Shown here: positions 2,354 to 16,253 of the stretch, in pieces
Layout: each line of letters begins with the position of its first letter
Numbering within the stretch: position 1 is the stretch's first letter
Origin: a virus
Length of the DNA stretch: 22,688 nt
Strand: one strand, 5' to 3'
Virus record (IMG/VR): IMGVR_UViG_3300029928_000041
Program-made: the position numbers and the translations under genes
The notes under the pieces: generated by a model
Seen by the model: only the letters and a program-made list of their open reading frames with translations
Told to the model about the DNA's origin: nothing
The model's database searches: none

Positions 2354-2579
2354 TCATGCGTCGTCGGCGAGACCGACGATCTTGCCATGCTGGATGAAGG
2401 AATCGATACGAGTCTCCATCCTCATGTGCAGCACGTTGAGCTCCTTCAGGGTCCTGGTGACTGCCGGGTTGTCGGCGGTGAAGAGCTCGATGGGAGTCAG
2501 CATGGACATCCAGATGTGGTCCAGATCGGCAAGGAAGATGTTTCCGAGCCTGGTCTTGGAGACCTTCTTCGTGGTGTAG
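1698..2579 (+). CDS. HNH-like (beta-beta-alpha metal) homing-endonuclease-family protein with a C-terminal HTH; the recognisable core spans 1698-2144
   Basis: Motifs RLRNIWRGIKKR..NP..KDY.HYG..GI..C.EW, TIDRVNNNQGYRPGNCRWVSRKAQANNR and IDGHTKSLAQW..GWSIEDALTTPV are typical of phage HNH-like proteins; GGAGT RBS before ATGATGATG. The canonical His is replaced by D-R, so nuclease activity is uncertain. The frame runs on abnormally to a TAG inside the MCP gene. Confidence 0.75.
   Translation: MMMEVDKSSKDYLRLRNIWRGIKKRTTNPRSKDYPHYGAVGIRMCKEWEDFEVFYEWAMSHGYRDGLTIDRVNNNQGYRPGNCRWVSRKAQANNRTSGKMYTIDGHTKSLAQWCRMYGIPPYVACHRMNDYGWSIEDALTTPVGEKRKKTQSGERRTPVNTKPGRGQEIIPSPLCNSRYIRNGIKQIRSDAEGRFRPSFGSPRGMVTHVMRGVSSPRFDHASSARPTILPCWMKESIRVSILMCSTLSSFRVLVTAGLSAVKSSMGVSMDIQMWSRSARKMFPSLVLETFFVV
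2138..2222 (-). ncRNA. Candidate small structured RNA (three-way junction) ending in an oligo-U tract
   Basis: The 5' and 3' ends pair (GCAGAGCGG/CCGCUCUGU), with internal stems GGGG/CCCC and GCCCG/CGGGC. A TATA box ends 23 nt upstream and T6 follows at 2143-2138. No known family recognised; strand not certain. Confidence 0.4.
2245..2252 (-). promoter_or_regulatory. Putative TATA box (TTTTATAC) for the candidate small RNA
   Basis: Same spacing to the predicted +1 as the leaderless promoters elsewhere in the window. Confidence 0.4.
2271..2290 (-). terminator. GAAA-tetraloop hairpin (GAGGGGCG-GAAA-CGCCCCTC)
   Basis: Perfect 8-9 bp stem downstream of MCP. Confidence 0.5.
2327..2346 (-). terminator. 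GAAA-tetraloop hairpin (GAGGGGAG-GAAA-CTCCCCTC) immediately after the MCP stop
   Basis: Perfect 8-bp stem 7 nt after the MCP TGA. Confidence 0.55.
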
Positions 2580-3649
2580 TCGAAGTTGGCGTTTCCGGAC
2601 TGGATGATGGGTATGTTGTTGTAGCTCTTCAGGGTGAGTCCCGCGTCCCTTCCGGGAATGGTCTTGACTCCGCCGAAGTCCCTCTGGACATAGACGGTGT
2701 TGAGGAGCCTCTGGTTGGCCTCCATCATAGCGCCGAGGAGATCCTGGGCGACATTGGACATGAAGAAGACCTTGTTGTTGGGGTTCCCGCTGTCGGCCCA
2801 GTTGACCTGGCAGGCCCTGTACAGGTCCCTCATGTGCTCCATCTTGAGAGCGGCTCCTGCGGCGTCGATGATGTTGGAATCCAGGTTGGATTCTCCGGTG
2901 GACCTCATGGTGTAGAAGTCTCCGTGTCCTGCAGTCCTTCCTCCATACGGAGAGACATCCTCTGCGGTGAGGGTGGCGGTTCCGATGGTCCTTCCGATCT
3001 CAGGGTGTCCGGAGATGATCCTGTCCAGTCCGTTCAGAGAGGTCTCGATTCCATCGAGGACGGGCTGCTTGACCTGAATGGGCCTCAGAAGGGTCTTGTC
3101 GGCAAGGTCGGTGTAGTTCCTGGAGATCTTGTCGAGATAGTCCTTCTTGGAGATGACATCATCCTTGTTCTCGACAGCTGCGAGATACATTCCGTAGTCG
3201 AAGGACAGAGGCAGTTCTTTGGACGGCTCCCTGTACTCGTTGAGGGGCATGGCGACGGAAGCAGGGATGTTTCCGTCAGGCAGGGTGGTTGCACCGAGTC
3301 CGATGAAGTCTCCCTCGGTCATTCCGAGCAGAGTGGCATCGGAGGCGGAGGCCAGTCCGTAGGTGGCGGCCTCGGTGGCGATACGAACTCCTTCCGTGGT
3401 GTACGGGCGGGCGCCTATCGCGGTGAATATATTGTCGTTCATGTACATCGCACAGGTGATGTACTTTCCGTAGATGGGGTTGAAGTAACCGTTGTTTCCA
3501 TCACCGTATCCGGCGTGGCCTGCGGACTTCATGAATTTTCCGACTGCCGCTCCATAGAAGTCCTCGATGAGGTCCTCCATGGCGAAGGGCTGCTCGGGGT
3601 AGGTGGTTCCGAGCTTCCCGTTCTGATTGATGAATTGTCCTGAACTCAT
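2354..3649 (-). CDS. Major capsid protein, HK97 fold, 431 aa
   Basis: Last gene of the protease-scaffold-MCP block. Motifs NPIYGK..RPYTTEGVRIAT, VKTIPGRDAGLTLKSYNNIPIIQS, GNIFLADLD and FIQHGKIVGL resemble archaeal (magrovirus/halovirus-type) MCPs as I recall them. Confidence 0.88.
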   Translation of the reverse strand: MSSGQFINQNGKLGTTYPEQPFAMEDLIEDFYGAAVGKFMKSAGHAGYGDGNNGYFNPIYGKYITCAMYMNDNIFTAIGARPYTTEGVRIATEAATYGLASASDATLLGMTEGDFIGLGATTLPDGNIPASVAMPLNEYREPSKELPLSFDYGMYLAAVENKDDVISKKDYLDKISRNYTDLADKTLLRPIQVKQPVLDGIETSLNGLDRIISGHPEIGRTIGTATLTAEDVSPYGGRTAGHGDFYTMRSTGESNLDSNIIDAAGAALKMEHMRDLYRACQVNWADSGNPNNKVFFMSNVAQDLLGAMMEANQRLLNTVYVQRDFGGVKTIPGRDAGLTLKSYNNIPIIQSGNANFDYTTKKVSKTRLGNIFLADLDHIWMSMLTPIELFTADNPAVTRTLKELNVLHMRMETRIDSFIQHGKIVGLADDA

Positions 3650-3658
3650 AGGATCGCC

Positions 3659-5623
3659 TTAGAAGCTGTCTTTTGCTTTAAAAACGTTATATCTGTCACA
3701 GTCGGCCAGGAGCATGTCCATGGGGTCCTGCCCGAACTTGAACGTGTGTTCGCTGGATTTGGCTACAGAGGAAGTTCCGTAGGTGGGCGTGGTGATGTCG
3801 CCGTTCACTGCGCACATGGTGCCGGGGCGCCCGCTCTTGGCGAATGCCATCATCTCCCTGAAGGACATGATGTGCTTGCCATTCTCTTCTGCAGTCTTGA
3901 CTACAGGCATGGTGACGGATGTCCTCTTGCCTGCTCCTTCTCCGCGCTCCATCGATGCGGAGGGGATCTCGACCTGCTTGGCTTCGCCGACATCCGACTT
4001 CTCGTCACCCGTGACCTCCTTGATCGGTTCTGCAGTGGCGATGGACGTCGGGTCCTGATGACCCTTCTGACCCGAGGGGATGCTCTCGGCGGTCTTCACA
4101 TCGTCGATAGGCGTCTTTCCCTCTTTGGATCCGCCGGTCAGGTCCATCTCAAGGATGCTCCTGGCGAGCCAGCTGTTGTCAGGGACCATGCTCTCGGACT
4201 TGGCGAAGTCGGTATCGACCTCACCCTCGGGGTGCATGATCTCCTCCTCGTCCACTGCCTTGGCGGCGCGGTCGTTGTACTGCTTGGCGATGGCGGTGTG
4301 TCCGTCGATGGGATCGAGGCTGTCGTACAGAAGAGCGGAGTCCATCATGCCTTTCATCATGGAGGAGAAGCTCGGTACGGACTTCACGAGTGTGTCCGTC
4401 GGGTCCTTCAGGAGTCCGTCGTCGGAATCCTGTTTGGCGGCTCCCTCGCTGAAGAGTGCGTTGGACGCTCCTTCGGAGCCTGCGCCCATGGCGCCCGCCT
4501 CCTTCTCGATGCTCTCGGTGTCTCCGCACTCGGCGGACTTCTTGATGTCGTCCTTCTCGTCGTCGGCTTTCTCCTCGGACTTGTCGTCCTTCTCCTCGGA
4601 CTTGTCTTCGGATTCGTCCTTCGACTCGCCTTCGGGAGCCTCTTCTGCGGTGATGTCGATCTCCGCGGCAGGTGCAGGCTCGGCCGCATCCGCATCGGTG
4701 ATGGCTTCATCCGCTTCGGGAACGGCTTCAGGTGCAGGCTCGGAGCCTCCGTTGGCCATAGCATCGAACTCGGACAGGAGCGCCTTGATCTTGTCGCCCA
4801 GCTTGCCCAGGGATGCGATGGCGGTGCTGTCTCCGCGGTCAACCGCGGATGCCAGGGCATCCTTCAGTCTGTTGTTGAAATCGGTCGTGAAATCCTCTCC
4901 GACCGCTGGTTCAGGAACCGACTCGGCTCCGAGCTCGGGTGCGCCCTCGATAGGCGCCTCTCCTTCGGGTGCGCCCTCTTCGGGAGTCGCCGCGGGCGTT
5001 CCCTCTCCCGAGGAGGCGCCGCCTGCTCCGCCCAGCCCGAGGGATGCCATCAGCTCATTGAACGCGGCATCGTCCTCGTCGGTCCATTCGTCATCTCCGT
5101 CGCCCTCGGGCGACGGCTCCTCCGCTGCTCCATCGACGCCCTGCACGGGTGCGGCGGCGTCCTCTGCCGCGGGAGGCACGGGACCCGCGCCTGCGTCCGC
5201 AGGCATCGGCCCTGCCCCTTCGCCTCCGGGAGGCATCTCGGGAGGCATCTCCGGAGGAAGTTCCTCTTTACCTGCCATTGCATCACCTGCCATATCATCC
5301 ATGCCGGTACCGTCGGAACCCGCGCCGGGCATACCGTCCATAGGCGGTGCGCCTCCCTCGGCTCCGTCCGCAGGCGGGAGTCCTCCTCCTTCTGCGGGCG
5401 GCACTCCGGGAGACGGCTCCTCCCCCATGGGAGCCGCGGCATTGGCGGTATCCACCGCCGCGTTGTCCCCCATGATGGACGGCACGATCTGCGCAGTGCG
5501 TGCCGCATCGATGCGGATCTCGTTCAGAGCCGCCAGCATTGTGTCCAGCTTCTCCGACAGCGAGGCCTTCTCGACACGTGCGGAGTCTTTGCAGAATTGC
5601 TCCCACGCTTCATCGGTGTCCAT
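3659..5623 (-). CDS. Putative capsid scaffolding protein, 654 aa, very acidic with a long disordered Ala/Glu/Pro/Gly/Asp-rich centre
   Basis: Lies between protease and MCP; N-terminal coiled coil, low-complexity repeats (MPPE, EPAPA, EDKSEEK) and many K-S/K-A sites. Confidence 0.7.
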   Translation of the reverse strand: MDTDEAWEQFCKDSARVEKASLSEKLDTMLAALNEIRIDAARTAQIVPSIMGDNAAVDTANAAAPMGEEPSPGVPPAEGGGLPPADGAEGGAPPMDGMPGAGSDGTGMDDMAGDAMAGKEELPPEMPPEMPPGGEGAGPMPADAGAGPVPPAAEDAAAPVQGVDGAAEEPSPEGDGDDEWTDEDDAAFNELMASLGLGGAGGASSGEGTPAATPEEGAPEGEAPIEGAPELGAESVPEPAVGEDFTTDFNNRLKDALASAVDRGDSTAIASLGKLGDKIKALLSEFDAMANGGSEPAPEAVPEADEAITDADAAEPAPAAEIDITAEEAPEGESKDESEDKSEEKDDKSEEKADDEKDDIKKSAECGDTESIEKEAGAMGAGSEGASNALFSEGAAKQDSDDGLLKDPTDTLVKSVPSFSSMMKGMMDSALLYDSLDPIDGHTAIAKQYNDRAAKAVDEEEIMHPEGEVDTDFAKSESMVPDNSWLARSILEMDLTGGSKEGKTPIDDVKTAESIPSGQKGHQDPTSIATAEPIKEVTGDEKSDVGEAKQVEIPSASMERGEGAGKRTSVTMPVVKTAEENGKHIMSFREMMAFAKSGRPGTMCAVNGDITTPTYGTSSVAKSSEHTFKFGQDPMDMLLADCDRYNVFKAKDSF

Positions 5624-5654
5624 AGTGTACCTGGAACTTGATAGTCTGTTCTGT

Positions 5655-5662
5655 TTTTATAA
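5655..5662 (-). promoter_or_regulatory. Putative TATA box (TTATAAAA) for a scaffold/MCP transcript
   Basis: Overlaps the upstream TAA and lies 32 nt before the scaffold ATG, which has a CAGGTA RBS. Confidence 0.4.
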
Positions 5663-6055
5663 TGTATCCCCGTTAACGCCTTTCCAACCCTCGGGAACGA
5701 TGGATATGCGAACGTTGAGGTCCACAGGATAGCGCCCGTATTCCAGCTCTCCGTATTCGTCGGTGTAGCTCATGACGACATCGAGCCATCCTGCGGGACG
5801 GGACCAGACGAAGCCTTTCATGCCGTCCAGGTCCTTTATCCCCATCCTTATCAGAGCTTCCACCGATTCGTAGGTGTAGTCCGCTTCGTTCTCGATATGG
5901 GCCTCCTGCGCATCGTCGGGAAGCTCTTCCGGCAGGTTGTCCGGCAGCACCGCGTACTCGGGAAGCACAGGTGCGACCGAATCGGCGAATTCCTCCCAGC
6001 GGAAGACGCCTTTGTAGTACCAGATCAGATCATATATCGGAGAGGTGCCATCCAT
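5657..6055 (-). CDS. Hypothetical acidic protein, ~132 aa (alternative start 6082)
   Basis: Protein-like ORF in the operon; GAGG precedes the ATG at 6055. Confidence 0.6.
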   Translation of the reverse strand: MDGTSPIYDLIWYYKGVFRWEEFADSVAPVLPEYAVLPDNLPEELPDDAQEAHIENEADYTYESVEALIRMGIKDLDGMKGFVWSRPAGWLDVVMSYTDEYGELEYGRYPVDLNVRISIVPEGWKGVNGDTL

Positions 6056-7031
6056 CGGCCTCGCGCTCCAGAAGCCCTGCATTGTACATGCGGTCGAAGT
6101 CCTCGCGGTCCATGCTCAGGATACGCCCCTCAGGGGTGATGCGTCCTGCATCGAACGCTTTCCTGAACTCACGCTCCACGACCTGCTCGCGGGGATACAG
6201 CCATGCTGTGCCGTTCCTCCACTCTCCGACCGCACCGATGCTCTTCATGAGAGGTACGGTCTTCCTGAACATCTCCTCGGAAAGCCCGGGAACCTCCACA
6301 TGGTCCGGCCTGGCGTGCGCCTCGATGCCTTTGTCGCGGAGGGCTTTCCTCAGGCCCAGCACAGGACACGTGCTGTAGTCGCGGTGCAATTCGTAGGAAT
6401 CCACTCCGAGGACGACATCCCCTGAGGACTTCTTCAGCCTGGCATTCTCATTGCACCATGTCATCTTGGCGTGCCTGTTCGACGGAACGCGACAGAGGGA
6501 GATCTCAAGAAGCTGCTTCACATTGCGTTTCACATAGCAGCCTTTGGAGTCGCAGCTGTAGCGTCCGGTGTCCGCCTCTCCTGCGATGCTCACATTGTTG
6601 AATCCCTTGATGAACGCCTTGCGGGCCGCGTCGTACACCTCGTCTCCGCCGAATATGTTGCCCCACATGCGGACCGCAGGCTTCCCTTCGATCTCGCACG
6701 GCTCGATGTCCCAGCAGGTTCCGACATTATAGTTCCCGTGGTTGTCCTGCAGGTTCCCGCCTGCACGGAGATAGTCATCCGCGTGCTTGACGATCGATTC
6801 CACGCCGATGACCTCTCCGTCCTTGTCCACATCCTCCACGGACGCGATAGCGCTGAAGGAGAAGCTGGACGGCAGGTCCTTGCATGCCTTCCATGCCTTC
6901 TTGCGAGCTTTCAGAACCTCTTCGTCCGTATGAGGATCGGCCTTGTTGTAGGCCTCCATCCATTTCTCGGAGTCCTCGTCATCCAGAGCCATACGGACCT
7001 GGGTCGGAAGCTCCCCTATGCTCGTGTACAT
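6030..7031 (-). CDS. Prohead maturation protease (HK97 gp4-like, His/Ser) with an N-terminal ChaB-like domain and a C-terminal extension, 333 aa
   Basis: IASVEDVDKDGEVI, LQDNHG (His), FNNVSIAG (Ser) and LLEISLCRVPSN match the protease family; the N-terminus YTSIGELPTQVRMALDDEDSEKWMEAYNKA matches ChaB; GGAGTG RBS before the ATG at 7031. Confidence 0.85.
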   Translation of the reverse strand: MYTSIGELPTQVRMALDDEDSEKWMEAYNKADPHTDEEVLKARKKAWKACKDLPSSFSFSAIASVEDVDKDGEVIGVESIVKHADDYLRAGGNLQDNHGNYNVGTCWDIEPCEIEGKPAVRMWGNIFGGDEVYDAARKAFIKGFNNVSIAGEADTGRYSCDSKGCYVKRNVKQLLEISLCRVPSNRHAKMTWCNENARLKKSSGDVVLGVDSYELHRDYSTCPVLGLRKALRDKGIEAHARPDHVEVPGLSEEMFRKTVPLMKSIGAVGEWRNGTAWLYPREQVVEREFRKAFDAGRITPEGRILSMDREDFDRMYNAGLLEREADGWHLSDI

Positions 7032-7459
7032 CGGCACTCCATCTCGTTTCTGAGCTTGTATATCTTGTGGTCGGCACCTGCCGTGCATTCCACATCATGC
7101 ATGACCATGAGCGCCATCTGCACCTCGTATCTGCTGAACCCGTCTGTGAGGCTTGCGATCTCCGTGAGCGTGGATGCGTACGGCACGGCCTTCCTGACCG
7201 CTTCCTTGCATTCCTCGGACACGGAGCACCACTCGGATCCTATCTTCTCATAGAGGAGCCTTTTCTCCTCCTCCGTGCCGTTCAGCTTCACGGACAAGGG
7301 CATCTTCCTCCATTCTATCAGCGGGGTATCGACTCTCCAGATGATGCTGAGGACCGAACGGGGAAGCATATTCAGCTTCCACGCCAGATCCCCTATGATA
7401 ACGTAGTCGTCTGCCGCGCACAGATGCTGCCATACCTTGAAATCATTGCGGTTCATCAT
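7016..7459 (-). CDS. Hypothetical protein, 147 aa, with two winged-helix-like segments
   Basis: ATGA overlap with the upstream stop and a GAGGT RBS; patterns IIGDLAWKLNM.PRSV.SII and STLTEIASLTDGFSRYEVQMAL...YKL. Confidence 0.6.
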   Translation of the reverse strand: MMNRNDFKVWQHLCAADDYVIIGDLAWKLNMLPRSVLSIIWRVDTPLIEWRKMPLSVKLNGTEEEKRLLYEKIGSEWCSVSEECKEAVRKAVPYASTLTEIASLTDGFSRYEVQMALMVMHDVECTAGADHKIYKLRNEMECRCTRA

Positions 7460-8070
7460 CGATACCTCGGGTTTCTTGCGGTTCTCCCGCGTATGCCGTC
7501 GTTTCTCCTGTCGGAGGACCACAGCTCTTCGTAGTCTCTGTTGTCGCTCTCGCTATCGACGAGACATTCTCTGAGAGGCATGGCTCTGATGCTCTCCGCC
7601 AGACCCTCTCCTTCGCCTGAAGGCCCCTCGGACCCGTTGTAGTCCTCTACATATCTTTTCGCCTGCTCCGCCACTCTTTCGGCAATGAGTTTTGGCGTAG
7701 GAGTCTTGTAATCCCATTCGGAAGGGATATCGAGCACGTCCAGCGTTCCGTACAGAGCGGGCCTCATGTACGGATTGGGATACGCTCCGTTCTCCATGAT
7801 GTTGTGATAGACACGGTCGGCGAACTTCTCATCTCTGCCGTTCCGCTTGGCCCATTCCCTGAATCTCTCCTGCGTCCTGGTGAGACCGTTCTTTCCCGGA
7901 GGCCCTCTGGAATCCTTGCTTGCAGGCTCCGTTCCGAATTCCACGTATGCGGCATACGGAGTATCGGCGATGACGACCCACGGCTCCAAGGCACCCGGGT
8001 CGCCCTCGCTCACCTCGTCCAGGATGATGTCCAGGAGGTCGTCGGGAAGGATCTCGGTGTGGACTTCCAT
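7456..8070 (-). CDS. HK97 gp10-like neck/tail-completion protein, ~204 aa
   Basis: PYAAYVEFGT ... AYPNPYMRPAL signature; TGATG coupling to the portal stop. Confidence 0.75.
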   Translation of the reverse strand: MEVHTEILPDDLLDIILDEVSEGDPGALEPWVVIADTPYAAYVEFGTEPASKDSRGPPGKNGLTRTQERFREWAKRNGRDEKFADRVYHNIMENGAYPNPYMRPALYGTLDVLDIPSEWDYKTPTPKLIAERVAEQAKRYVEDYNGSEGPSGEGEGLAESIRAMPLRECLVDSESDNRDYEELWSSDRRNDGIRGRTARNPRYR

Positions 8071-9779
8071 CAATCCATGCTCCCGTCGGCTTCCCTCTTG
8101 GAGAGGTCTACCTCGTCCTTGGCGTCGCCGATCTCCTCGTCCTCTCTGCGGGCGGTGCCCTTCTCAGGAGGCCCGTCTCCGTCTCCCGGCATCATTCCGC
8201 CGTCGGCGATAGGCTGCTGGGCCGCCTGCGCGGCCTGCATGGCCTCCTGCTTTCTGCGCTCCACCTGATCGATGGGTTCCTCGGAGTATCTGATGTCTCC
8301 GTCCACATTGAAGATATCGAATCCGAGAGACTTCATCATCTGCGCCTCCTGGAGCTTGTCCATTCTGCGCTTGGCGTCGGTGTATGCCTTGGACGGTCTG
8401 TTGACTCTCAGGTTCCAGTCGGTTATATTGGGGAACCAGCTCATGATCCAGTCGCACAGGCTGTCTATGAACTCGTATTTGTCCATCAGGTACCTGTCGA
8501 AGATGGTTATCTGCTGACTCTCGTTGTTCATTCCTCCCGATGCCTCCACATCTCCTGCGAACAGGTTGGGGACTCCGCCGTGAGCGCACAGCCTGTCTCT
8601 GATGTCGTCCTTGGCCTGCAACGCCTGCGATGCGTCGTCGGTTCCCAGCTCAAGGGTCTGAGCCTTCATCTCCGCCGTACCGGGTATCTGCGGAGGCGTG
8701 CAGATGATGGGGATGGAGTTGGTATTGGTGGACAGAACGTCTTGAACGCCCTTCGCCATGGACTCGGCATCCTGCTCGCTGAATCCGGGCAGGATGACAA
8801 TCTTCCTCACGTATCCGAACTTGTATCTGGACAGGAAATGCTTCTCCAGATAGTGATACGCCAGCAGGTCGTCCTCGATGTCGAACCATATCGGGATGCC
8901 GTATGTCAGCGAGGGTCTGAACCAATGGTCCTGATAGACCTCCTCCTGCGTGTACAGCCAGTATTGTCCCGCACCTCCTGGAGACTCGCCGATCTGCCAG
9001 TACGCAGGATATATCTCCTTGCCGTCCTGAGCCAGCTGGTAGATCTTCTCCTCGTCGGTGTCTATGTTTATCTTGCTCTGTCTGTTGTCGCGGGTGAATC
9101 CGTAGGTGGTTCCCGGCTTTCCCGTCCTGTCGAAAAGACTCATGACATACTCGGGAGCCTCTGCGATGAACTCAAGCGGGTATGCGCGCTGCAGCCTTCC
9201 GCTGTCGGAGTCTATGAGATCCCCGGTGACGCATAGGATGTATGCCTGGTTGTTCAGATACTGGGATTCGGCATACGATCTCAGAACCTCCTTCAGCGTC
9301 TGCCCGTTGTCGTTGGCCTCTTTGAGGAAGCTCCTGCCGTTGGGACGGATGAAATACGCCTGCTGTGTCCAATCGGGTCTGCGGAGTCTTGCCGAACCGC
9401 ATGACGGGCATTTGGACACTTCGGTCTGCGCTTCATATCCGCATTCCTCGCATTTCTTGTTGAATTTCGGTTCGAATCCCAGACCGTGCCTGAACAATTC
9501 GGTGGTAGCGCGGGAGCAGATGGTGGATAGAACGGAGACTTCGCGGCGATACCAGTTCATCAAGGTATACATCATCCAGAAGTTGGACTGCTCCGCCACG
9601 CGATAGTATTGGTTGGTAGGACGCTCTGCATTCGCAATCGCCACATTTATGCGCTGATAGTCGCTCTGCCTGTCCAGGACATCGTCCGTGGATGCTCCGA
9701 GCATCTTCGAGTCCAGCTCGATGGTGCCGAGCCGCTCCATCGGCATCTCACGGGTAAGTTGACCGCCTGCTATTCTCAT
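8070..9779 (-). CDS. Portal protein, 569 aa, with a CxxC..CxxC zinc-ribbon insertion
   Basis: Directly downstream of TerL, with typical size and motifs (YGIPIWFDIEDDL, AHGGVPNLFAGD, QITIFDR); AGGTGA RBS. Confidence 0.85.
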   Translation of the reverse strand: MRIAGGQLTREMPMERLGTIELDSKMLGASTDDVLDRQSDYQRINVAIANAERPTNQYYRVAEQSNFWMMYTLMNWYRREVSVLSTICSRATTELFRHGLGFEPKFNKKCEECGYEAQTEVSKCPSCGSARLRRPDWTQQAYFIRPNGRSFLKEANDNGQTLKEVLRSYAESQYLNNQAYILCVTGDLIDSDSGRLQRAYPLEFIAEAPEYVMSLFDRTGKPGTTYGFTRDNRQSKINIDTDEEKIYQLAQDGKEIYPAYWQIGESPGGAGQYWLYTQEEVYQDHWFRPSLTYGIPIWFDIEDDLLAYHYLEKHFLSRYKFGYVRKIVILPGFSEQDAESMAKGVQDVLSTNTNSIPIICTPPQIPGTAEMKAQTLELGTDDASQALQAKDDIRDRLCAHGGVPNLFAGDVEASGGMNNESQQITIFDRYLMDKYEFIDSLCDWIMSWFPNITDWNLRVNRPSKAYTDAKRRMDKLQEAQMMKSLGFDIFNVDGDIRYSEEPIDQVERRKQEAMQAAQAAQQPIADGGMMPGDGDGPPEKGTARREDEEIGDAKDEVDLSKREADGSMD

Positions 9780-9806: not shown

Positions 9807-11264
9807 TTAAAAATCTCTTCTGGATGCGAACACTCTCCTGCTGGTTCTGCCGGTCTGTTCGGGTATCGCGCGTCCGTCGCCTCCCTTGGCTTCGAATACA
9901 CGTGCGGAAGCGTTCACGAAGAATTTGGAGGAGCTGTATCTCAGAGCATCCAGAGTGTGATCGAACTCTTTGATGGGCCTCTCCAACCAATTGCCGTTCT
10001 TGTCTTGGTCGTAGGCATAGTTCTGAAGCTCGATTATCATGTTCCTGCAGGATTGATGGATGTGCATCTTGAATGATTGGAGCCTCTGGATGCCGTTCTT
10101 CAGAGAATCGGGGCCCTTGAGCGCGGGGCGGATGGCAGGCAGCGCCCATATGTATGCGGACTCTCTGCCTTCTTCATCCACGATGACCTCTGCAAGACCT
10201 CTCTGAAGCTCGCTGATGGACTTGGGCTCCGCGGCATCGGCCCATATCTCCTCCTTGCCGTATCCCATCATGCAGATGCGCTTGGCAATGGCGAGATTGG
10301 TCATTCCCTTCTCGTACATCTCGTCGAACACCCATAGCTCTCTCGCGCCGATGTCGAAATACACTGCTACGAAGGCATTGTACGAGATGGAGTATCCGAA
10401 ATCCAGTCCGAAGGACAGCTGGCCCCGAGGGTGCTGCTCCATGACCTCGTGGATATCGAACGCCTCCTGCACCCAGTTCTCATAAATCAGACCCTCTGCG
10501 ATTCCCCATTCCCCATCGCACACGATACGCGCAAGGCGCGGAGAATCCGTATACAGGGACATGTACTGCGCTCTGTCCACATCGGACAGGTACTCGTTGC
10601 ATCTGAACGTCGTGGTGAGAGCCAGCGTGTCGTCGCGGGGTTCGTCGAAGAATCTCTTCTTGATCCATGATGTGGCGGACCAGGGGTTGAACGTCCCGGT
10701 GTACTGCTTCCACAGATGCGGAGGCAGATTTCCACGGATGGACATCGCCAAGGTGTTGAATGCGTCCTCGTTCTCGAAATCCGCGAACTCCTCCATCCAC
10801 ACCCAGCACAGATATCCGTCGGATACGCCTACGGATGCCAGTTTGAGAGGGTCGTCCATTCCTCTGAACAGGATGACCTGATCGTTCGGACGGGATGCCG
10901 TCTTGCGATGCGTCATCCTCAGATTGGATGGGGATATCTCCCAGCTGTCATGAAGATAGAGGCGGTTGATCGCCCATTCCAATGTGGCGAACACCGAATC
11001 GCGGAGGGTGTTCCCTTGTTTCTTGATGACGAGCAGATTGGCATCAGGGTACATCTCCAGATGCCAGATGAACCACAGCGCGGCCGTATACGACTTCTTG
11101 GAACCTTTGGAGCCTTTCACCATGCGGTACAGAGCCTTGCTGTTCCAGAACTCGTCATACCCGTCGCCGATGAGCTTGCGGAGCGATACGATGGGTCTCC
11201 CGTCGGGTCCGATGGGGTCGCCGTAGCGTGTGACTCCGTATCCGATGTCGGCGCTCTCCGCCAT
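9807..11264 (-). CDS. terL: Terminase large subunit (PBSX/Terminase_3-like), 485 aa
   Basis: Walker A variant KGSKGSKKS, Walker B WVWMEE, FRGMDDP, TFNP, and nuclease motifs GLDFG, DAAEP and DHTLDALRY. An AGGTG RBS 6 nt before the ATG at 11264 makes the track's GTG at 11273 part of the RBS. Confidence 0.95.
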   Translation of the reverse strand: MAESADIGYGVTRYGDPIGPDGRPIVSLRKLIGDGYDEFWNSKALYRMVKGSKGSKKSYTAALWFIWHLEMYPDANLLVIKKQGNTLRDSVFATLEWAINRLYLHDSWEISPSNLRMTHRKTASRPNDQVILFRGMDDPLKLASVGVSDGYLCWVWMEEFADFENEDAFNTLAMSIRGNLPPHLWKQYTGTFNPWSATSWIKKRFFDEPRDDTLALTTTFRCNEYLSDVDRAQYMSLYTDSPRLARIVCDGEWGIAEGLIYENWVQEAFDIHEVMEQHPRGQLSFGLDFGYSISYNAFVAVYFDIGARELWVFDEMYEKGMTNLAIAKRICMMGYGKEEIWADAAEPKSISELQRGLAEVIVDEEGRESAYIWALPAIRPALKGPDSLKNGIQRLQSFKMHIHQSCRNMIIELQNYAYDQDKNGNWLERPIKEFDHTLDALRYSSSKFFVNASARVFEAKGGDGRAIPEQTGRTSRRVFASRRDF

Positions 11265-11719
11265 CGGCTGCACCTGCCGTTCACAGGAATTATGACCTCA
11301 TCGCAGTCGTCATCATCATCGTCATCATCATCGTCGGGTGCCTCGATGGGAACGCACCCATTCGTCGCGGCACTCGCAGGCGCCAGGTCGTTGACGAACA
11401 TTGGGGCCTCCACCTGCATGAGCTGCTCCTTGACGGGTTCCAGACCTCCGTATTTGAAGAGGAACTCCGCCTTGCGCTGGTCTCCTGCCAGAGCATCCGC
11501 TGCGAACTGAAGGATGATGCGGGTCTTGATATCCACATTGGCATCCTTGTAGTCCTTGAGGGGCCTGATGCCGTCCACGGATTCGACAGGGCCTTTCCTG
11601 AGGGGGGTGCAGAGGACTGCACCGATGATGTTCTGGACGTCGCGGCGACCGTTCTTCTTCCCGACTGCTCTCGAAACGAGGATCTCGGTCGGCGTGTACG
11701 CATCGGTGTCGCCTCTCAT
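11117..11719 (-). CDS. Putative terminase small subunit (about 150 aa genuine plus read-through into terL)
   Basis: Immediately upstream of terL; helical core (IILQFAADALAGDQRKAEFLFKY) and a poly-Asp tail. The call is mainly positional. Confidence 0.55.
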   Translation of the reverse strand: MRGDTDAYTPTEILVSRAVGKKNGRRDVQNIIGAVLCTPLRKGPVESVDGIRPLKDYKDANVDIKTRIILQFAADALAGDQRKAEFLFKYGGLEPVKEQLMQVEAPMFVNDLAPASAATNGCVPIEAPDDDDDDDDDDCDEVIIPVNGRCSRWRRAPTSDTESHATATPSDPTGDPSYRSASSSATGMTSSGTARLCTAW

Positions 11720-11725
11720 GGAATC

Positions 11726-12193
11726 TCACCTGTTGAATGCCCCGTCTTTCTTCATGCGCCCGAGAGGGGTCTGCCACCCGCACCTCTGGCATCTGTCCGG
11801 GAGCATTTTGAGAGACATGCCGTATTTGAGCTTGCATCCGGGACATGTCCACCCGTCGTTGACATTGTCCACGATATCTCCGCCTTCGAAATTCTCCCCA
11901 TAGAATTGGAAGTACATCTCTGCGAGATTATCACCGAGGGCGAACTCTCTCGCACACATGTCGTAATCGCCTTTGGTCGCACGGAACTTCTCCATCTGAG
12001 CACCCTGCTCGGACTTGGATGCCATCCTCTCGACGCCTCTGCGCTCCTGCCTGTATATGTCCAGACGAAGCCTGTTGGCCACCTCGGGATCAACCCAGCG
12101 CTGCAGCATGGATGCAGGCATCAGCCTGAGGTCCTCCGGCGTGAAGGAGTGATGCATCAGTTCCCTGAATTCCTCTGTACTCCGCGTCACCAT
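11726..12193 (-). CDS. Hypothetical protein, 155 aa, with a C-terminal zinc ribbon (CPGC..CQRC)
   Basis: First gene after the AT-rich promoter; two CxxC pairs. Confidence 0.7.
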   Translation of the reverse strand: MVTRSTEEFRELMHHSFTPEDLRLMPASMLQRWVDPEVANRLRLDIYRQERRGVERMASKSEQGAQMEKFRATKGDYDMCAREFALGDNLAEMYFQFYGENFEGGDIVDNVNDGWTCPGCKLKYGMSLKMLPDRCQRCGWQTPLGRMKKDGAFNR

Positions 12194-12308: not shown

Positions 12309-15300
12309 TCAGTTCCTGACCCTCGGACCTATGCCTGCATTCTTGCGGGTGAGACCCTCGTCGTTGCGCTTGGCTTCAGGGATCTCGTCGGGGACCGCCT
12401 TGGTCCTGCCATCCTGTCCCATACTGACGGGGACGCATCCGAACGTGAACACAGAGCCTCCTACGGGAAGTCCATAGGGGTGTCCCTCCTTGCCTGCGTT
12501 CTTGGCGATGCTCTCCATCATATCCCTCATTGACATGTTCATCATGCTTTCCATAGTACCACTTTTCCCTATAGGTTTCAAATCGTTTTTTCCGCTGTTC
12601 CCGGTTTCCCCGTCGCCCATCTTTTCACGGTTCTCCTTCTCGATCTGCTTGACGATCTCCGCATCTTTGAACAGGTTGCGGTTTTTGTTCGGATCCGTAG
12701 CCGGATATTTTCCGTCGTTGATACGCGAATCGTTCCATGCGCCAACGCTCTGAGTCAACGGATTGAGCTCAGGATTGTAATCCTCTATCTCAGGAATGCT
12801 CTTGGGATTCTCCTCGCGCACGGCCTCCGCATCCGCACGCTGCTGGCTGCGGTTATCCTTCACCGTGTTCTTCACATTCATGCCTCCTGCGATCTTCAGA
12901 GGGTCCTCCTGATTCTTCCAGGATTCCGACTCAAGGGGCGATCTGGTCCCAGACGGATTGCCGCCGATACCCCCTGTGGTTCTGTTCGGAATCAGGCTCG
13001 GATTATACGTTCCATCGTCCCATGCCCCCGACTCTGCTGCAATCTCTCTGCTCCTGGTGACGTCATGAACATCGCTGAGGTTTATTCCGCTGCCTCTTCC
13101 TCCCAGCTCTCCGAGATCGTCATCATCCTCTTCAGGGTAGCGCGGCAACTCAGGTGCACCGTTTGAAAAACGACGGCCTATTTCATCGTTCATCTTCTCC
13201 TGGTAGAGGTCCGCAGAGTCACCGTAGAGCTTGCGCAAATTCATTGTGTAATCTACCATGTCCGCCATCTTTCCGAATCCAAGCTCATACAAATCCCTGT
13301 GCAGGTTCCTGTACTGTTTCATATGCTTGTCATCGAACAGCTCATCGTTCCCGATGTCGTAGTTACGCATATCCTCGAAGAACCTCCTAGTCCTGTTGCG
13401 CAGTCTGTCGAACATCCCTTCATAGATGTCTGTACCAGAGTTCTCTATAGCTTCGGCGAGCGGGACCTGCTGAGCGATGCGTTTCCCTTCTTCCAACTTC
13501 TTGCGTCCCTCCCTCTCCCTCTTGTTCTCCACAGGTCCTCTTCCCAGCTGATTTCTGGCCTCATTGCTCAGCTGACCGGTACGGCTGTCCTGGACGAATG
13601 GATTGAAGGATTCCATGATGCCGATATCCTCCTTGAAGTCGGAAAGCGCTTCGGGATCGTCCTTGAGCTTCTCGAACACATCGCCGTACTTATCAGACAT
13701 CTTGGCATCCGTTTTCTGTGTACCTGCTCTGGATATGTCTGTAAGAAGGTTTTTTCCGAGCTTCAGCGCTTCCTTCAGCCTTTCATCGGAATCCTCGGGC
13801 TCCTTCAGAAGACCTCCAATCGTATTCTCCACGGAATGATACGCATAATAGTACGCATTGTCGTATCTGTCCTTCATCGACTGGGATCTTCTGATATTCC
13901 TCTTCTTCTCAGCCATGCGCCTCTTCATGGAGGCTTCGTTCAGGACGATGGTGGCGGCATCGACCAGCATGCCTTTCTTGAGATTCTTGCTCCAGCTCTC
14001 GAAAGGCACGTCCGTCGGTACAGTGTCGGCAGGGTTGATGTATCCGTTCCTCTTGCAGAATGCCCTCCCTTCCGCTGTACCCAGCCATGCGAGGGCCTTC
14101 CGGGCGATCTCCCTGTTGTCCTTGCTTGCGCTCAGCCATTTGTTCGCATAGGTCTTGCGGCTTGCGAGATCCTTGTTGATGAGCTCGCTCTTCATGGAAT
14201 CCGATACAGTCAGCCTCGAAGGACGCCCGGCTTCCAGCTCCTCCTTTACTTCGGGATCGATTCCTCTGGGGTTCAGATGCAGAGTGTTGGTCTTTACGAA
14301 ATCCTCTACGACATGCCTCGGGAGAATCTGGAAGAGCCTGATCATCGAATCGATATCGACCGTGTTGCTGCCGGAGCCGGAGAGCTTGTCGTACCAGATG
14401 TTGGGGTAGTTCCTCACCAGCTCTGTAACCTTGTTCGTCGCCCACGTCTTGTCGTTGCGTGGAACATAGGTGCCGAGCATGCGTGCGCCGATGATATTGT
14501 TTTTCAGAGCCTCCTTCTTATCCCTTTCTGTCAATCTTGTTTGTTCAAGATTCAAGGCATCCATGTAATCTTCCAGTTGCCTATCGCTGAGCTTTCCTGG
14601 ACCTACGCGGAACGCATCTGCAGCCTCATCGTAGTATGTGCGACTCGCCATCGTCCTGAACAGGGCATTGCGCTTCTTCTCCAACAAAGCTCTGTCCTTC
14701 TTCAACTTAGCTCTTTCCACTGGAAGCAGGTCTTCAGACTCCAATCTCGACTCTAATGTTTTCAAGCTGCTCATGGTGTTTATGAGCTCCTTGCGCTCCT
14801 GAGCGGTGAGGCCGAGGTATTCAGGGGGCAGATCGAGTTCGTCCCCCGGTTTGCGATTCACCTTCGCATTCGCATATTCCATGTATGCGTTGTACTTCTG
14901 TTCGTCCAACGCATTGTTGTCGGCCGCCCCGAGGGCATCCATGATGTCGTTGAAATGACGTCCTCTCAGTGCGCTCTTCTCATTGAACGGATATCTGGCC
15001 TTGCCGTACTTGGGATACCAGATCTGCTCTTCGCCCTTATCGTTCGTGAATTTCTTGTTAGGGGTGGTACCCGGCAGAAGATAGGAGGTCTCGTCGTTTA
15101 TAGCCTGATCCGCGAAGGGTTTGGATGATACTCCCGCCTCGAATGCGCTGTCGCCGTAGGTGGGCTTGTCCTCGCGGTACCAGCCCATGCCTTCGCGGTC
15201 GATTATCGGATGGCTTCCGAACTCATTGCTGTTGGATTTGCGGTCCGCATCCACGAGCAGCCTGGTGATGTTCCGGAGCCAGTGCATCTTGTCCCTGTTT

Positions 15301-16253
15301 GCGGTCTCCTCCTCCTGCAGCCTGCGCAGCGTATCTTTGATCTCACTCCATGTAGTGGAATCCGTGGTGCCGAATGCGTTGTTGCCGAACTTATTGCGTA
15401 TCCACATGGCATCCTTCATGTATCCTGTGGAATTGAAGGAGGACTCTCCGCGCATCATGCCCGGGTTCTTCATATAGTTCTGTTCCAGCTCCCCGTCCCT
15501 GTTCCTGTTCTTCTTGAGCGGAATGATCTTGTCGTTCGCATCCAATCTGGGAACGTAGTTTCCGAACTCGTCCCTCTTGAAGCGTGTTCCCACCTGGACC
15601 TGCTTGCCGTTCTTCATCCTGTATACAGGTTCGATCACCACTTCGTAGTATACAGGCATGAATTTGTATGGATTGCCGTATCCTTCGGTGGGATTCAGGA
15701 GGAACGCCCCGTTGTACGGCATGGGTTCGAGGATGACGTTTCCGTTCTTGTCCTTGACAGGCACCAGCCTGTTCTCGATGGTTCCGTCCGGCATCCTCAC
15801 GGTCTTGGGCTCCACCCGAGGAATCATCGTCGCGGCGCCCTTGGGCACGGCATCCACTCTGTGCGTTTTCGGATTGTATCTGCCGTACCTCAGCCCCGGT
15901 TCGAAACTGATGTTGTTGACCGTGAATCCCGCCCTTGATACGGGCGCACCGTCGATGTTCTCCATATCAGGAGGTCCGTACGGCGAATTCATAGTCCTCC
16001 CGGCATCGGTAGATCTCGCTTGCATGGCATTGGCATTATCATATGCCAGGTTTTTTGAGGATCTGCCCGTATCCTTCTTCTCTATCGGCTCCTTCTTCAG
16101 CTCGGACCTCTTGGCGAGAGCTTTGTCTATGCGTGCGAGGACCCTGTTGATGTCCGCCTTGGGCGCCTCCATAAGATCGCCCACGGTCGCTTCATCATCT
16201 TCTTCAGCATCCTTCTCATCATCAGTATCCACCTCGTCCTTGCACGCATCCAT
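12309..16253 (-). CDS. Giant hydrophilic protein, 1314 aa (possibly 1342 aa from an ACG at 16337); probable internal virion/ejection protein
   Basis: Long uninterrupted ORF, K/R/D/N-rich and helical with no TM segment; its C-terminus shares a motif with the scaffold. The function is inference. Confidence 0.8.
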   Translation of the reverse strand: MDACKDEVDTDDEKDAEEDDEATVGDLMEAPKADINRVLARIDKALAKRSELKKEPIEKKDTGRSSKNLAYDNANAMQARSTDAGRTMNSPYGPPDMENIDGAPVSRAGFTVNNISFEPGLRYGRYNPKTHRVDAVPKGAATMIPRVEPKTVRMPDGTIENRLVPVKDKNGNVILEPMPYNGAFLLNPTEGYGNPYKFMPVYYEVVIEPVYRMKNGKQVQVGTRFKRDEFGNYVPRLDANDKIIPLKKNRNRDGELEQNYMKNPGMMRGESSFNSTGYMKDAMWIRNKFGNNAFGTTDSTTWSEIKDTLRRLQEEETANRDKMHWLRNITRLLVDADRKSNSNEFGSHPIIDREGMGWYREDKPTYGDSAFEAGVSSKPFADQAINDETSYLLPGTTPNKKFTNDKGEEQIWYPKYGKARYPFNEKSALRGRHFNDIMDALGAADNNALDEQKYNAYMEYANAKVNRKPGDELDLPPEYLGLTAQERKELINTMSSLKTLESRLESEDLLPVERAKLKKDRALLEKKRNALFRTMASRTYYDEAADAFRVGPGKLSDRQLEDYMDALNLEQTRLTERDKKEALKNNIIGARMLGTYVPRNDKTWATNKVTELVRNYPNIWYDKLSGSGSNTVDIDSMIRLFQILPRHVVEDFVKTNTLHLNPRGIDPEVKEELEAGRPSRLTVSDSMKSELINKDLASRKTYANKWLSASKDNREIARKALAWLGTAEGRAFCKRNGYINPADTVPTDVPFESWSKNLKKGMLVDAATIVLNEASMKRRMAEKKRNIRRSQSMKDRYDNAYYYAYHSVENTIGGLLKEPEDSDERLKEALKLGKNLLTDISRAGTQKTDAKMSDKYGDVFEKLKDDPEALSDFKEDIGIMESFNPFVQDSRTGQLSNEARNQLGRGPVENKREREGRKKLEEGKRIAQQVPLAEAIENSGTDIYEGMFDRLRNRTRRFFEDMRNYDIGNDELFDDKHMKQYRNLHRDLYELGFGKMADMVDYTMNLRKLYGDSADLYQEKMNDEIGRRFSNGAPELPRYPEEDDDDLGELGGRGSGINLSDVHDVTRSREIAAESGAWDDGTYNPSLIPNRTTGGIGGNPSGTRSPLESESWKNQEDPLKIAGGMNVKNTVKDNRSQQRADAEAVREENPKSIPEIEDYNPELNPLTQSVGAWNDSRINDGKYPATDPNKNRNLFKDAEIVKQIEKENREKMGDGETGNSGKNDLKPIGKSGTMESMMNMSMRDMMESIAKNAGKEGHPYGLPVGGSVFTFGCVPVSMGQDGRTKAVPDEIPEAKRNDEGLTRKNAGIGPRVRN

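Follow-up and report, generated by a model that had tools for sequence, protein, structure and literature searches.

A motif shared by two proteins of a viral head module

The window analyzed here is a 22,688-nucleotide stretch of virus DNA from IMG/VR record IMGVR_UViG_3300029928_000041. Its long genes, all on the minus strand, make up a head module with the order giant protein, zinc-ribbon protein, terminase large subunit, portal, 205-residue protein, 352-residue protein, 654-residue acidic protein and major capsid protein (MCP) (Table 1). The element of interest is a short, methionine-rich motif found in both the giant protein and the acidic protein, a putative scaffold; by analogy with known capsid targeting sequences (CTSs), it probably loads the giant into the capsid. 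The nearest annotated record is BK063680 (Caudoviricetes sp. vir335; host Methanomassiliicoccales, source baboon faeces), which has the same gene order and an MCP 42% identical to that of the window. The window virus is a gut archaeal virus of the Methanomassiliicoccales type. Human gut, rumen-type and fermenter metagenomes supplied 32 related loci, gathered via the portal and capsid proteins. Counting the window, six viruses carry both the scaffold and the giant gene on the fetched DNA, and one locus from a public metagenome assembly, L027, is a near-identical strain of the window.

A sequence-only reading of this DNA had proposed that the scaffold and the giant share a C-terminal motif, [ST][FM]x[SED]MM, that serves as a cargo-loading signal. 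Translated in six frames, the window has four matches to this consensus, a pair in each of these proteins and none elsewhere, and the two proteins do share a conserved, non-random peptide. The peptide at 12474-12572 (minus strand; giant residues 1228-1260) reads as that account quoted it, but it is not literally the end of the giant, which runs 54 residues further.

The motif is kept in the scaffolds and giants of six viruses that have otherwise diverged past BLAST recognition. The giants of all six carry M-S-[LIM]-[RK]-[DE]-M-M..I-A-K...GHPYG, and all six scaffolds carry a C-proximal copy of the form I-M-[ST]-[FL]-[RKQ]-[DE]-M-M...K-S..R-P, with an internal copy, P-S-[FIM]-x-[DS]-[ML]-M, in four of the six viruses. 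The continuation described earlier as AK..G[RH]P is likewise conserved, as I-A-K-[NS]..K.GHPYG in giants and A-K-S-G-R-P in scaffolds, and so are the K-S or K-N sites near the motif, which flank it on both sides. The overall consensus, x-[ST]-[FLMI]-[RK]-[DE]-M-M-x-x-[IF]-x-K, is probably a short amphipathic helix. In a codon alignment, third positions vary freely across the motif while the peptide is kept, and this synonymous variation indicates that selection acts on the peptide.

To gauge exclusivity, we counted a strict form of the motif, [ST]-[FLMI]-[RK]-[DE]-M-[MVSYA], in the same-strand open reading frames (ORFs) of 25 related, non-redundant loci. Of the 17 matches in 139,507 residues, scaffolds account for nine, giants for six and the extreme C-termini of the L026 and L028 portals for two. 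The opposite strand yields four matches in 122,121 ORF residues, two of which are antisense to the scaffold copy. The search across relatives that had been suggested thus finds the motif kept in both families in six viruses and otherwise confined to two portal tails. All six frames of five whole virus records were also scanned with a 20-position profile of the motif. Each of two sister genomes (estimated 97-98% complete) yielded four copies, a pair in the giant and a pair in the scaffold, and a 78%-complete genome yielded three; since these copies were in the profile's training set, the informative result is that no other protein of the five records matched at E ≤ 10. Two more distant whole virus records gave no match to the profile.

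The two families were also compared with each other. The motif goes undetected when giant and scaffold are aligned by BLASTP; profile-profile alignment of the two C-terminal modules with hhalign aligns 28 columns with an E value of 5.9e-5 and a probability of 65%. When each family was scanned with a position-specific scoring matrix (PSSM) built from the other, the best match fell on the motif in four of six giants and seven of eight scaffolds. Conservation and exclusivity are nevertheless stronger evidence for the motif than these per-protein statistics.

The C-terminal module of the giant protein

In the giants, the C-proximal motif copy opens a conserved module of ~85 residues. It is only over these last ~85 residues that the window giant is recognizably similar to those of L002, L005, L006 and L016. 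An exhaustive HMMER search of 1.84 billion representatives with a profile of this module returned 27 proteins at E ≤ 0.001; in the 24 protein clusters that reach E ≤ 1e-10, the module is always C-terminal. Nearly all of the proteins have 1,000-1,500 residues and carry the module at their extreme C-terminus. With the ends trimmed, the bodies of the window giant and 24 module-bearing proteins fall into 10 groups that share no BLAST similarity with one another. A conserved C-terminal module on a hypervariable body thus looks like a portable address. The designation of the motif as C-terminal holds for this module, but it is only part of the picture: in most giant groups outside the window's subgroup, further copies lie right after the initiator Met (MESFKEMM, MQTFEEIMAE, MQSFEEMMAE).

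Comparison with the near-identical strain separates the two parts of the giant. Between the window giant and its L027 counterpart (3529-7473), 13 codons differ non-synonymously and 12 synonymously; with one exception, the amino-acid changes are in the first half of the protein, and the module has none. Across six other head genes, these two strains show 0 non-synonymous and 17 synonymous changes. The strain differences therefore indicate that the giant body evolves fast while its ends are held, and the body appears to be under relaxed or diversifying selection.

Modeled alone with AlphaFold2 (AF2), the module is predicted at low confidence (mean predicted local distance difference test score, pLDDT, 52.9), with two short helices at module residues 9-13 and 18-28. 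Pfam and PHROG assign no family to the giant or the scaffold and no enzyme domain to the giant, and seven diverse giants gave only sub-threshold Rubrerythrin and Sel1 matches. ESM Atlas offered no usable match for the giant. A tblastn search with the module found nothing in 50,697 phage records, and a word-based homolog search with it returned only the window's own protein. In L001 (5806-6408), the giant extends ~200 residues past the module in tandem D-L-R-I-G-G-S-D-D repeats; P0007, from the same cluster as the L001 giant and another assembly, stops soon after the module.

The putative scaffold

The C-proximal copy of the scaffold, at residues 582-601 of 654, lies ~65 residues from the C-terminus, and the matching segment of the giant is predicted to be helical, at low confidence. 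A likely helical element near the scaffold C-terminus is an arrangement of the P22, 80alpha and HK97 delta type. The two families share only ~28 columns and their C-terminal tails differ, so the earlier proposal that a scaffold coat-binding helix had been grafted onto the giant is overstated.

All scaffold homologs, including distant ones of 949-1368 residues, start with D-x-[AK]-W-[DE]-x-F (window 5566-5623). We considered the N-terminal E-A-W-E-Q-F as a second dispersed tag and rejected it; it occurs in scaffolds only. The scaffold homolog of L026 and L028 has 949-979 residues and lacks the C-terminal module. Instead, a separate ORF of 68-69 residues (L026 16394-16600, L028 16393-16602) overlaps the scaffold stop just before the capsid gene and begins with a diverged motif copy, G-K-H-I-Q-T-L-N-E-T-F, and this separate module may reflect a split gene or a recoding site. 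The DNA of the C-proximal scaffold copy is quasi-palindromic: an antisense frame (3783-4058, plus strand) reads I-I-S-L-K-D-M-M, as in L002 and L006, and this look-alike peptide looks like a by-product of the I-M...M-M codons.

Table 1 Features of the window that bear on the shared motif, with their positions
Feature	Position	Strand	Details
Giant protein gene	12309-16253	-	1314 residues, isoelectric point (pI) 5.9; hypervariable body, conserved ends
Conserved C-terminal module of giant	12312-12581	-	Residues 1225-1314: K-S site, Met-rich helix, GHPYG turn, Gly/aromatic-rich tail
Tandem motif in giant	12501-12557	-	Residues 1233-1251: TMESMM, then SMRDMM-ESIAK
Candidate protease cut K1230-S1231	12561-12566	-	Border of variable body and conserved module; putative
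Putative scaffold	3659-5623	-	654 residues, pI 4.06; acidic, low-complexity; directly upstream of MCP gene
Scaffold internal motif copy VPSFSSMMKGMM	4328-4387	-	Core residues 418-427
Scaffold C-proximal motif copy GKHIMSFREMMAFAKSGRPG	3821-3880	-	Residues 582-601 of 654
Scaffold-specific C-terminal tail after motif	3662-3820	-	Ends in conserved Y-N-[VL]-[FY]-K...F; not common to giant
Major capsid protein, HK97-like	2354-3649	-	PHROG major head protein, 1.4e-7; 42% identity to annotated MCP of BK063680
Probable prohead protease	6030-7088	-	352 residues; ChaB-like N-domain and HK97/T4 gp21-like core
205-residue protein	Between portal and 352-residue protein genes	-	
Portal protein	8070-9779	-	Pfam Phage_portal below cut-off; conserved gene order; BK063680 homolog annotated portal
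Terminase large subunit	9807-11273	-	Pfam Terminase_3 1.3e-44, Terminase_3C 2.2e-26
Small zinc-ribbon protein	11726-12193	-	Between giant and terminase genes

A candidate prohead protease and its possible sites

Adjoining the scaffold gene is the gene for the 352-residue protein, whose true start is probably M20. Its N-terminal domain is ChaB-like (Pfam 1e-3 in the window, matched in 11 of 11 homologs with a best value of 2.4e-5; structural Z 5.6). Conserved His and Ser residues stand in family sequence blocks: H117 (D-H-x-N-Y), S167 (L-S-I-A-G-E) and E195 are invariant in 11 homologs, together with an LLEISLC.vP.N block, and we take the three to be the catalytic residues on the pattern of HK97-family protease motifs. 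An AF2 model (mean pLDDT 74.5) was compared with known structures by VIA-align, in which T4 gp21 (5jbl; Z 5.4 over 101 residues, root-mean-square deviation 3.9) and the varicella-zoster virus protease (1vzv; Z 4.8) were among the top rows, both below the reliable level. Foldseek of the model against PDB gave no match at E ≤ 0.001, and the Pfam Peptidase_S78 and S78_2 profiles did not reach the gathering score (one homolog of 11 for each profile, at E 0.11 and 0.12). The BK063680 homolog is annotated 'prohead protease'. From its sequence blocks and its model, in which the fold match is suggestive, the protein is probably an HK97/T4 gp21-like prohead protease.

K-S dipeptides, possible targets of such an enzyme, are more frequent in the window scaffold than expected (8 against 3.0, p 0.005), and a similar enrichment (p 0.001-0.02) is found in four of five other scaffolds; most of these sites are hydrophobic-x-K-S. 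A K-[ST] lies at most 16 residues upstream of the giant motif in 19 of 25 representative giants, and the MCP has a conserved F-x-K41-S42-A-G near its N-terminus (window 3523-3528). By analogy with the K103/S104 cut of HK97, K41-S42 of the MCP and the K-S sites of the scaffold are candidate head-protease sites. The release of the cargo by proteolysis, as proposed earlier, is made plausible by the conserved K-S sites that flank the motif, and the protease candidate is in keeping with it; cleavage itself is the presumed step.

Other observations in the head module

In L026 (9863-11695) and L028 (9782-11593), the portals end in S-M-R-E-M-M-A or S-M-R-E-M-A-A, a strict motif match, where closer relatives' portals carry L-S-K-R-E-A-D; these portal ends may hint at a portal role in the same interaction. 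The zinc-ribbon protein has a conserved N-terminal E-x-F-R-E-x-[LM], and at its position in L031 a small ORF (249-605) starts ...R-P-F-R-E-M-M-A-M-R-K-S. As a motif carrier, however, the zinc-ribbon protein was rejected: the motif profile had no match to its homologs in three sister genomes at E ≤ 10.

The terminase large subunit has 817-862 residues in L001 (7424-9970), L002 (7455-9908) and L009 (7257-9845), compared with 488 in the window. The extra ~350 residues near the C-terminus in L001 match inteins (Intein_splicing 1.1e-7, Hint_2 3.1e-6), and the window gene is intein-free. After the capsid gene, a minus-strand ORF of 263 residues (1566-2357) shows two non-synonymous and 0 synonymous strain differences; the ORFs matched to it by BLAST in relatives are short and have unrelated ends, and it may be no real gene. 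An ORF of 364 residues on the opposite strand (1259-2353, plus) has no Pfam match.

A proposed model for loading of the giant protein

We propose that the motif is a docking helix of the CTS kind through which the giant co-assembles with the scaffold core, a reading to which we assign a probability of about 0.5. In this scheme, docking, the identity of the partner, packaging, cleavage and ejection are all proposed steps. The scaffold carries one internal copy of the putative helix and one ~65 residues from its C-terminus, and the giant one copy that opens its C-terminal module and, in most lineages, another at its N-terminus. With one helix displayed by cargo and scaffold alike, the giant would probably be recruited to the scaffold's partner during procapsid formation, so that it ends up inside the shell. 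As that partner, the scaffold core, the protease and the portal are candidates no less than the capsid protein. The head protease would then dice the scaffold at its many hydrophobic-x-K/S sites and cut the giant at the conserved K-S that immediately precedes the module, setting free in the head a body of ~135 kDa that would leave with the DNA.

Several points weigh against the docking helix. The giant is a presumed virion protein, and it has no family assignment. The giants of the window and its closest relatives have no clear N-terminal copy and start instead with A-D-I-x-R-[VM]-L. Distant relatives (L008, L009/L010 and L026/L028) give no match to the motif profile, so the motif is lineage-restricted; in the L009/vir335 lineage, scaffold and giant both appear to carry an altered motif. 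The extension of the L001 giant past the module means that a free C-terminus is not required. The cross-family statistics are modest, with single-protein p values of only 0.004-0.15 in the PSSM scans and marginal E values of 0.008-0.4 with hidden Markov models (HMMs), and the strict motif was defined post hoc, after inspection of the data. The motif could also be a protease recognition element, given that in T4 one peptide serves both roles. A complex prediction for the MCP (10-row alignment) with the giant module (6 rows) scored 0.11 against a mark of 0.32, with an uncertain partner fold, and counts neither way.

A more far-reaching version of the docking helix, which we hold only tentatively and would sooner doubt than assert, is that a two-ended address, made up of an N-terminal CTS-like decapeptide and a C-terminal helix-turn module copying the scaffold docking helix, packs one diversifying effector of ~150 kDa into Methanomassiliicoccales virus heads. 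The head protease would free this effector at the K/S site, and the likeness to the T4 CTS would reflect an ancient docking groove shared by HK97-fold procapsids of bacterial and archaeal viruses.

Alternative explanations

The main rival, and one that we consider rather unlikely, is that the motif is chiefly a prohead-protease recognition or cleavage element that marks where cuts are made, with the differing C-terminal tails doing the binding. The herpesvirus M-site and the L/I-x-E sites of T4 gp21 are models for such an element, and the motif contains a Phi-x-[DE] that is similar to the T4 gp21 site. The virus has a protease candidate, the motif stands at a similar distance from the C-terminus in scaffold and giant (~60-75 residues), and conserved K-[SN] sites lie on both sides of it. 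Moreover, the T4 CTS itself ends in a gp21 cut site (PMC8442874). A 10-12-residue amphipathic pattern with two invariant Met residues, however, exceeds what known prohead protease sites need; cuts at the extreme N-terminal copies of the giants would remove few residues unless the peptide itself had a role; and the candidate site in the MCP, F-M-K-S-A-G, has no adjoining motif. By analogy with T4, the two roles may coincide.

That the similarity arises by chance, or from the composition of Met-rich helices in two long, fast-evolving proteins, would fit the weak single-protein PSSM and HMM values given above and a consensus chosen after the fact. We regard it as improbable, given that different lineages keep the motif at four separate positions, that whole genomes have it in no other protein, that no other stretch of this otherwise hypervariable family is so well conserved, and that hhalign aligns the two modules at the E value given above. 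Very improbable, in our judgment, is that the Met cluster provides internal starts from which small co-terminal products would arise (~75 residues at the end of the giant, ~68 at that of the scaffold), on the model of lambda C/Nu3 and herpes UL26/UL26.5, in which case the motif would always be an N-terminus. A Met precedes the motif serine in most copies, and the separate 68-69-residue ORF of L026 and L028 starts just before the motif-like helix, as this explanation would have it; yet the preceding Met is absent from the L016, L029 and L032 scaffolds, from P0018 and P0020 and from all internal scaffold copies, and the internal ATGs have no convincing ribosome-binding sequence before them when compared with real gene starts. 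The quasi-palindrome of the scaffold copy (ATCATG...ATGATG, -20 kcal/mol in the window), with its near-same antisense peptide, raises the further idea of a nucleic-acid signal, whether a hairpin or a palindromic protein-binding site in coding sequence. The hairpin is weak or absent in L001, L016, L032 and the giants, and third codon positions vary while the peptide is kept; with a fold that is not conserved and synonymous sites that vary, the DNA or RNA hairpin was rejected, and a signal of this kind is extremely improbable.

Comparison with known systems

The T4 CTS, MKTYQEFIAE, of the internal proteins IPI-III and Alt (Mullaney and Black 1996, cited by PMC8442874, PMC7411985 and PMC9958956) is removed by gp21 (PMC8442874). 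The T4 CTS is said to interact with the prohead core and thereby to lead to incorporation of IPI-III and Alt (PMC7411985), and a 2023 review calls the mechanisms that localize proteins in the scaffolding core 'mysterious' (PMC9958956). Against the N-terminus MQTFEEIMAE of one relative, the T4 peptide is identical at five of ten residues, although ten residues are too few for homology, and a pattern of [ST]-aromatic/aliphatic-x-E-hydrophobic-hydrophobic fits both the T4 peptide and the motif. Both systems would combine a short helical peptide on head-interior proteins, the head residence of the giant being presumed, with a gp21/HK97-fold protease, here the candidate described above. They differ in that the motif here is also on the scaffold itself and also embedded near a C-terminus, in an 85-residue module; in that there is one giant (~150 kDa), hypervariable protein rather than the many small basic proteins of T4; and in that the hosts are archaea. 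The likeness to T4 is thus best taken as a functional analogy. The HK97 protease also has a capsid targeting peptide.

The HK97 delta domain (residues 76-103) is an inner-shell helix, turn and strand beside a K/S cut: the capsid protein is cut at K103/S104, just after this helix-turn-strand, which lies against the shell (PMC10275583). The module here has a predicted helix (low confidence), a Gly/Pro turn and a possible strand region, with K-S conserved at the borders. In HK97, however, the element is fused to the capsid protein, whereas here it is on a separate scaffold and a cargo candidate.

The P22 scaffold binds coat through a C-terminal helix-turn-helix, and the staphylococcal 80alpha scaffold and SaPI1 CpmB share a C-terminal capsid-binding helix; 80alpha and CpmB are thus a precedent for a second protein that copies a scaffold docking helix. 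The position of the element near the scaffold C-terminus is common to these systems and the window virus, but there is no sequence similarity, the putative helix here lies some distance upstream of the C-terminus (~65 residues), and the scaffold and giant tails differ. The sequence-only reading had taken the scaffold C-terminus of P22 and herpesviruses as its model; the N-terminal giant copies instead point to the T4 CTS as the closest one.

In phage P1, the 250-kDa DarB bears a capsid targeting signal at its N-terminus and is packed into the head and delivered with the DNA, and P1 may use a scaffold domain on its capsid protein, not a separate scaffold (PMC9024508). DarB resembles the giant in being a very large protein with a short terminal signal, the packaging of the giant being presumed, and differs in that its N-terminal signal is unlike the motif here. 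DarB has recognizable enzyme domains. Encapsulin cargo is docked inside an HK97-fold shell by a short terminal peptide, with a different consensus from that found here, and encapsulins have no scaffold, protease or DNA packaging.

Capsid targeting peptides are therefore already known as a kind, from T4, P1, the HK97 protease and encapsulins. What is new here is the particular motif, its presence on both a scaffold and a cargo candidate, the two-ended arrangement on one giant hypervariable protein and the archaeal (methanogen) host. In the literature searched, no paper links archaeal viruses with a capsid targeting sequence, in line with the earlier statement that none had been described in such a virus.

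Implications

How proteins other than those of the shell and scaffold enter virus heads is poorly understood, even in T4. The viruses described here constitute a natural experiment, in which one helix on the scaffold and on the ends of the giant is conserved while the cargo body changes. If the docking reading is correct, then on the literature searched the motif would be the first signal for capsid loading to be defined in an archaeal virus. It would also provide a handle on what the viruses of gut methanogens inject into their hosts, and a small tag with which foreign proteins could be packed into HK97-type shells. Its resemblance to the T4 tag lets one ask whether such tags bind a conserved site in HK97-fold procapsids.

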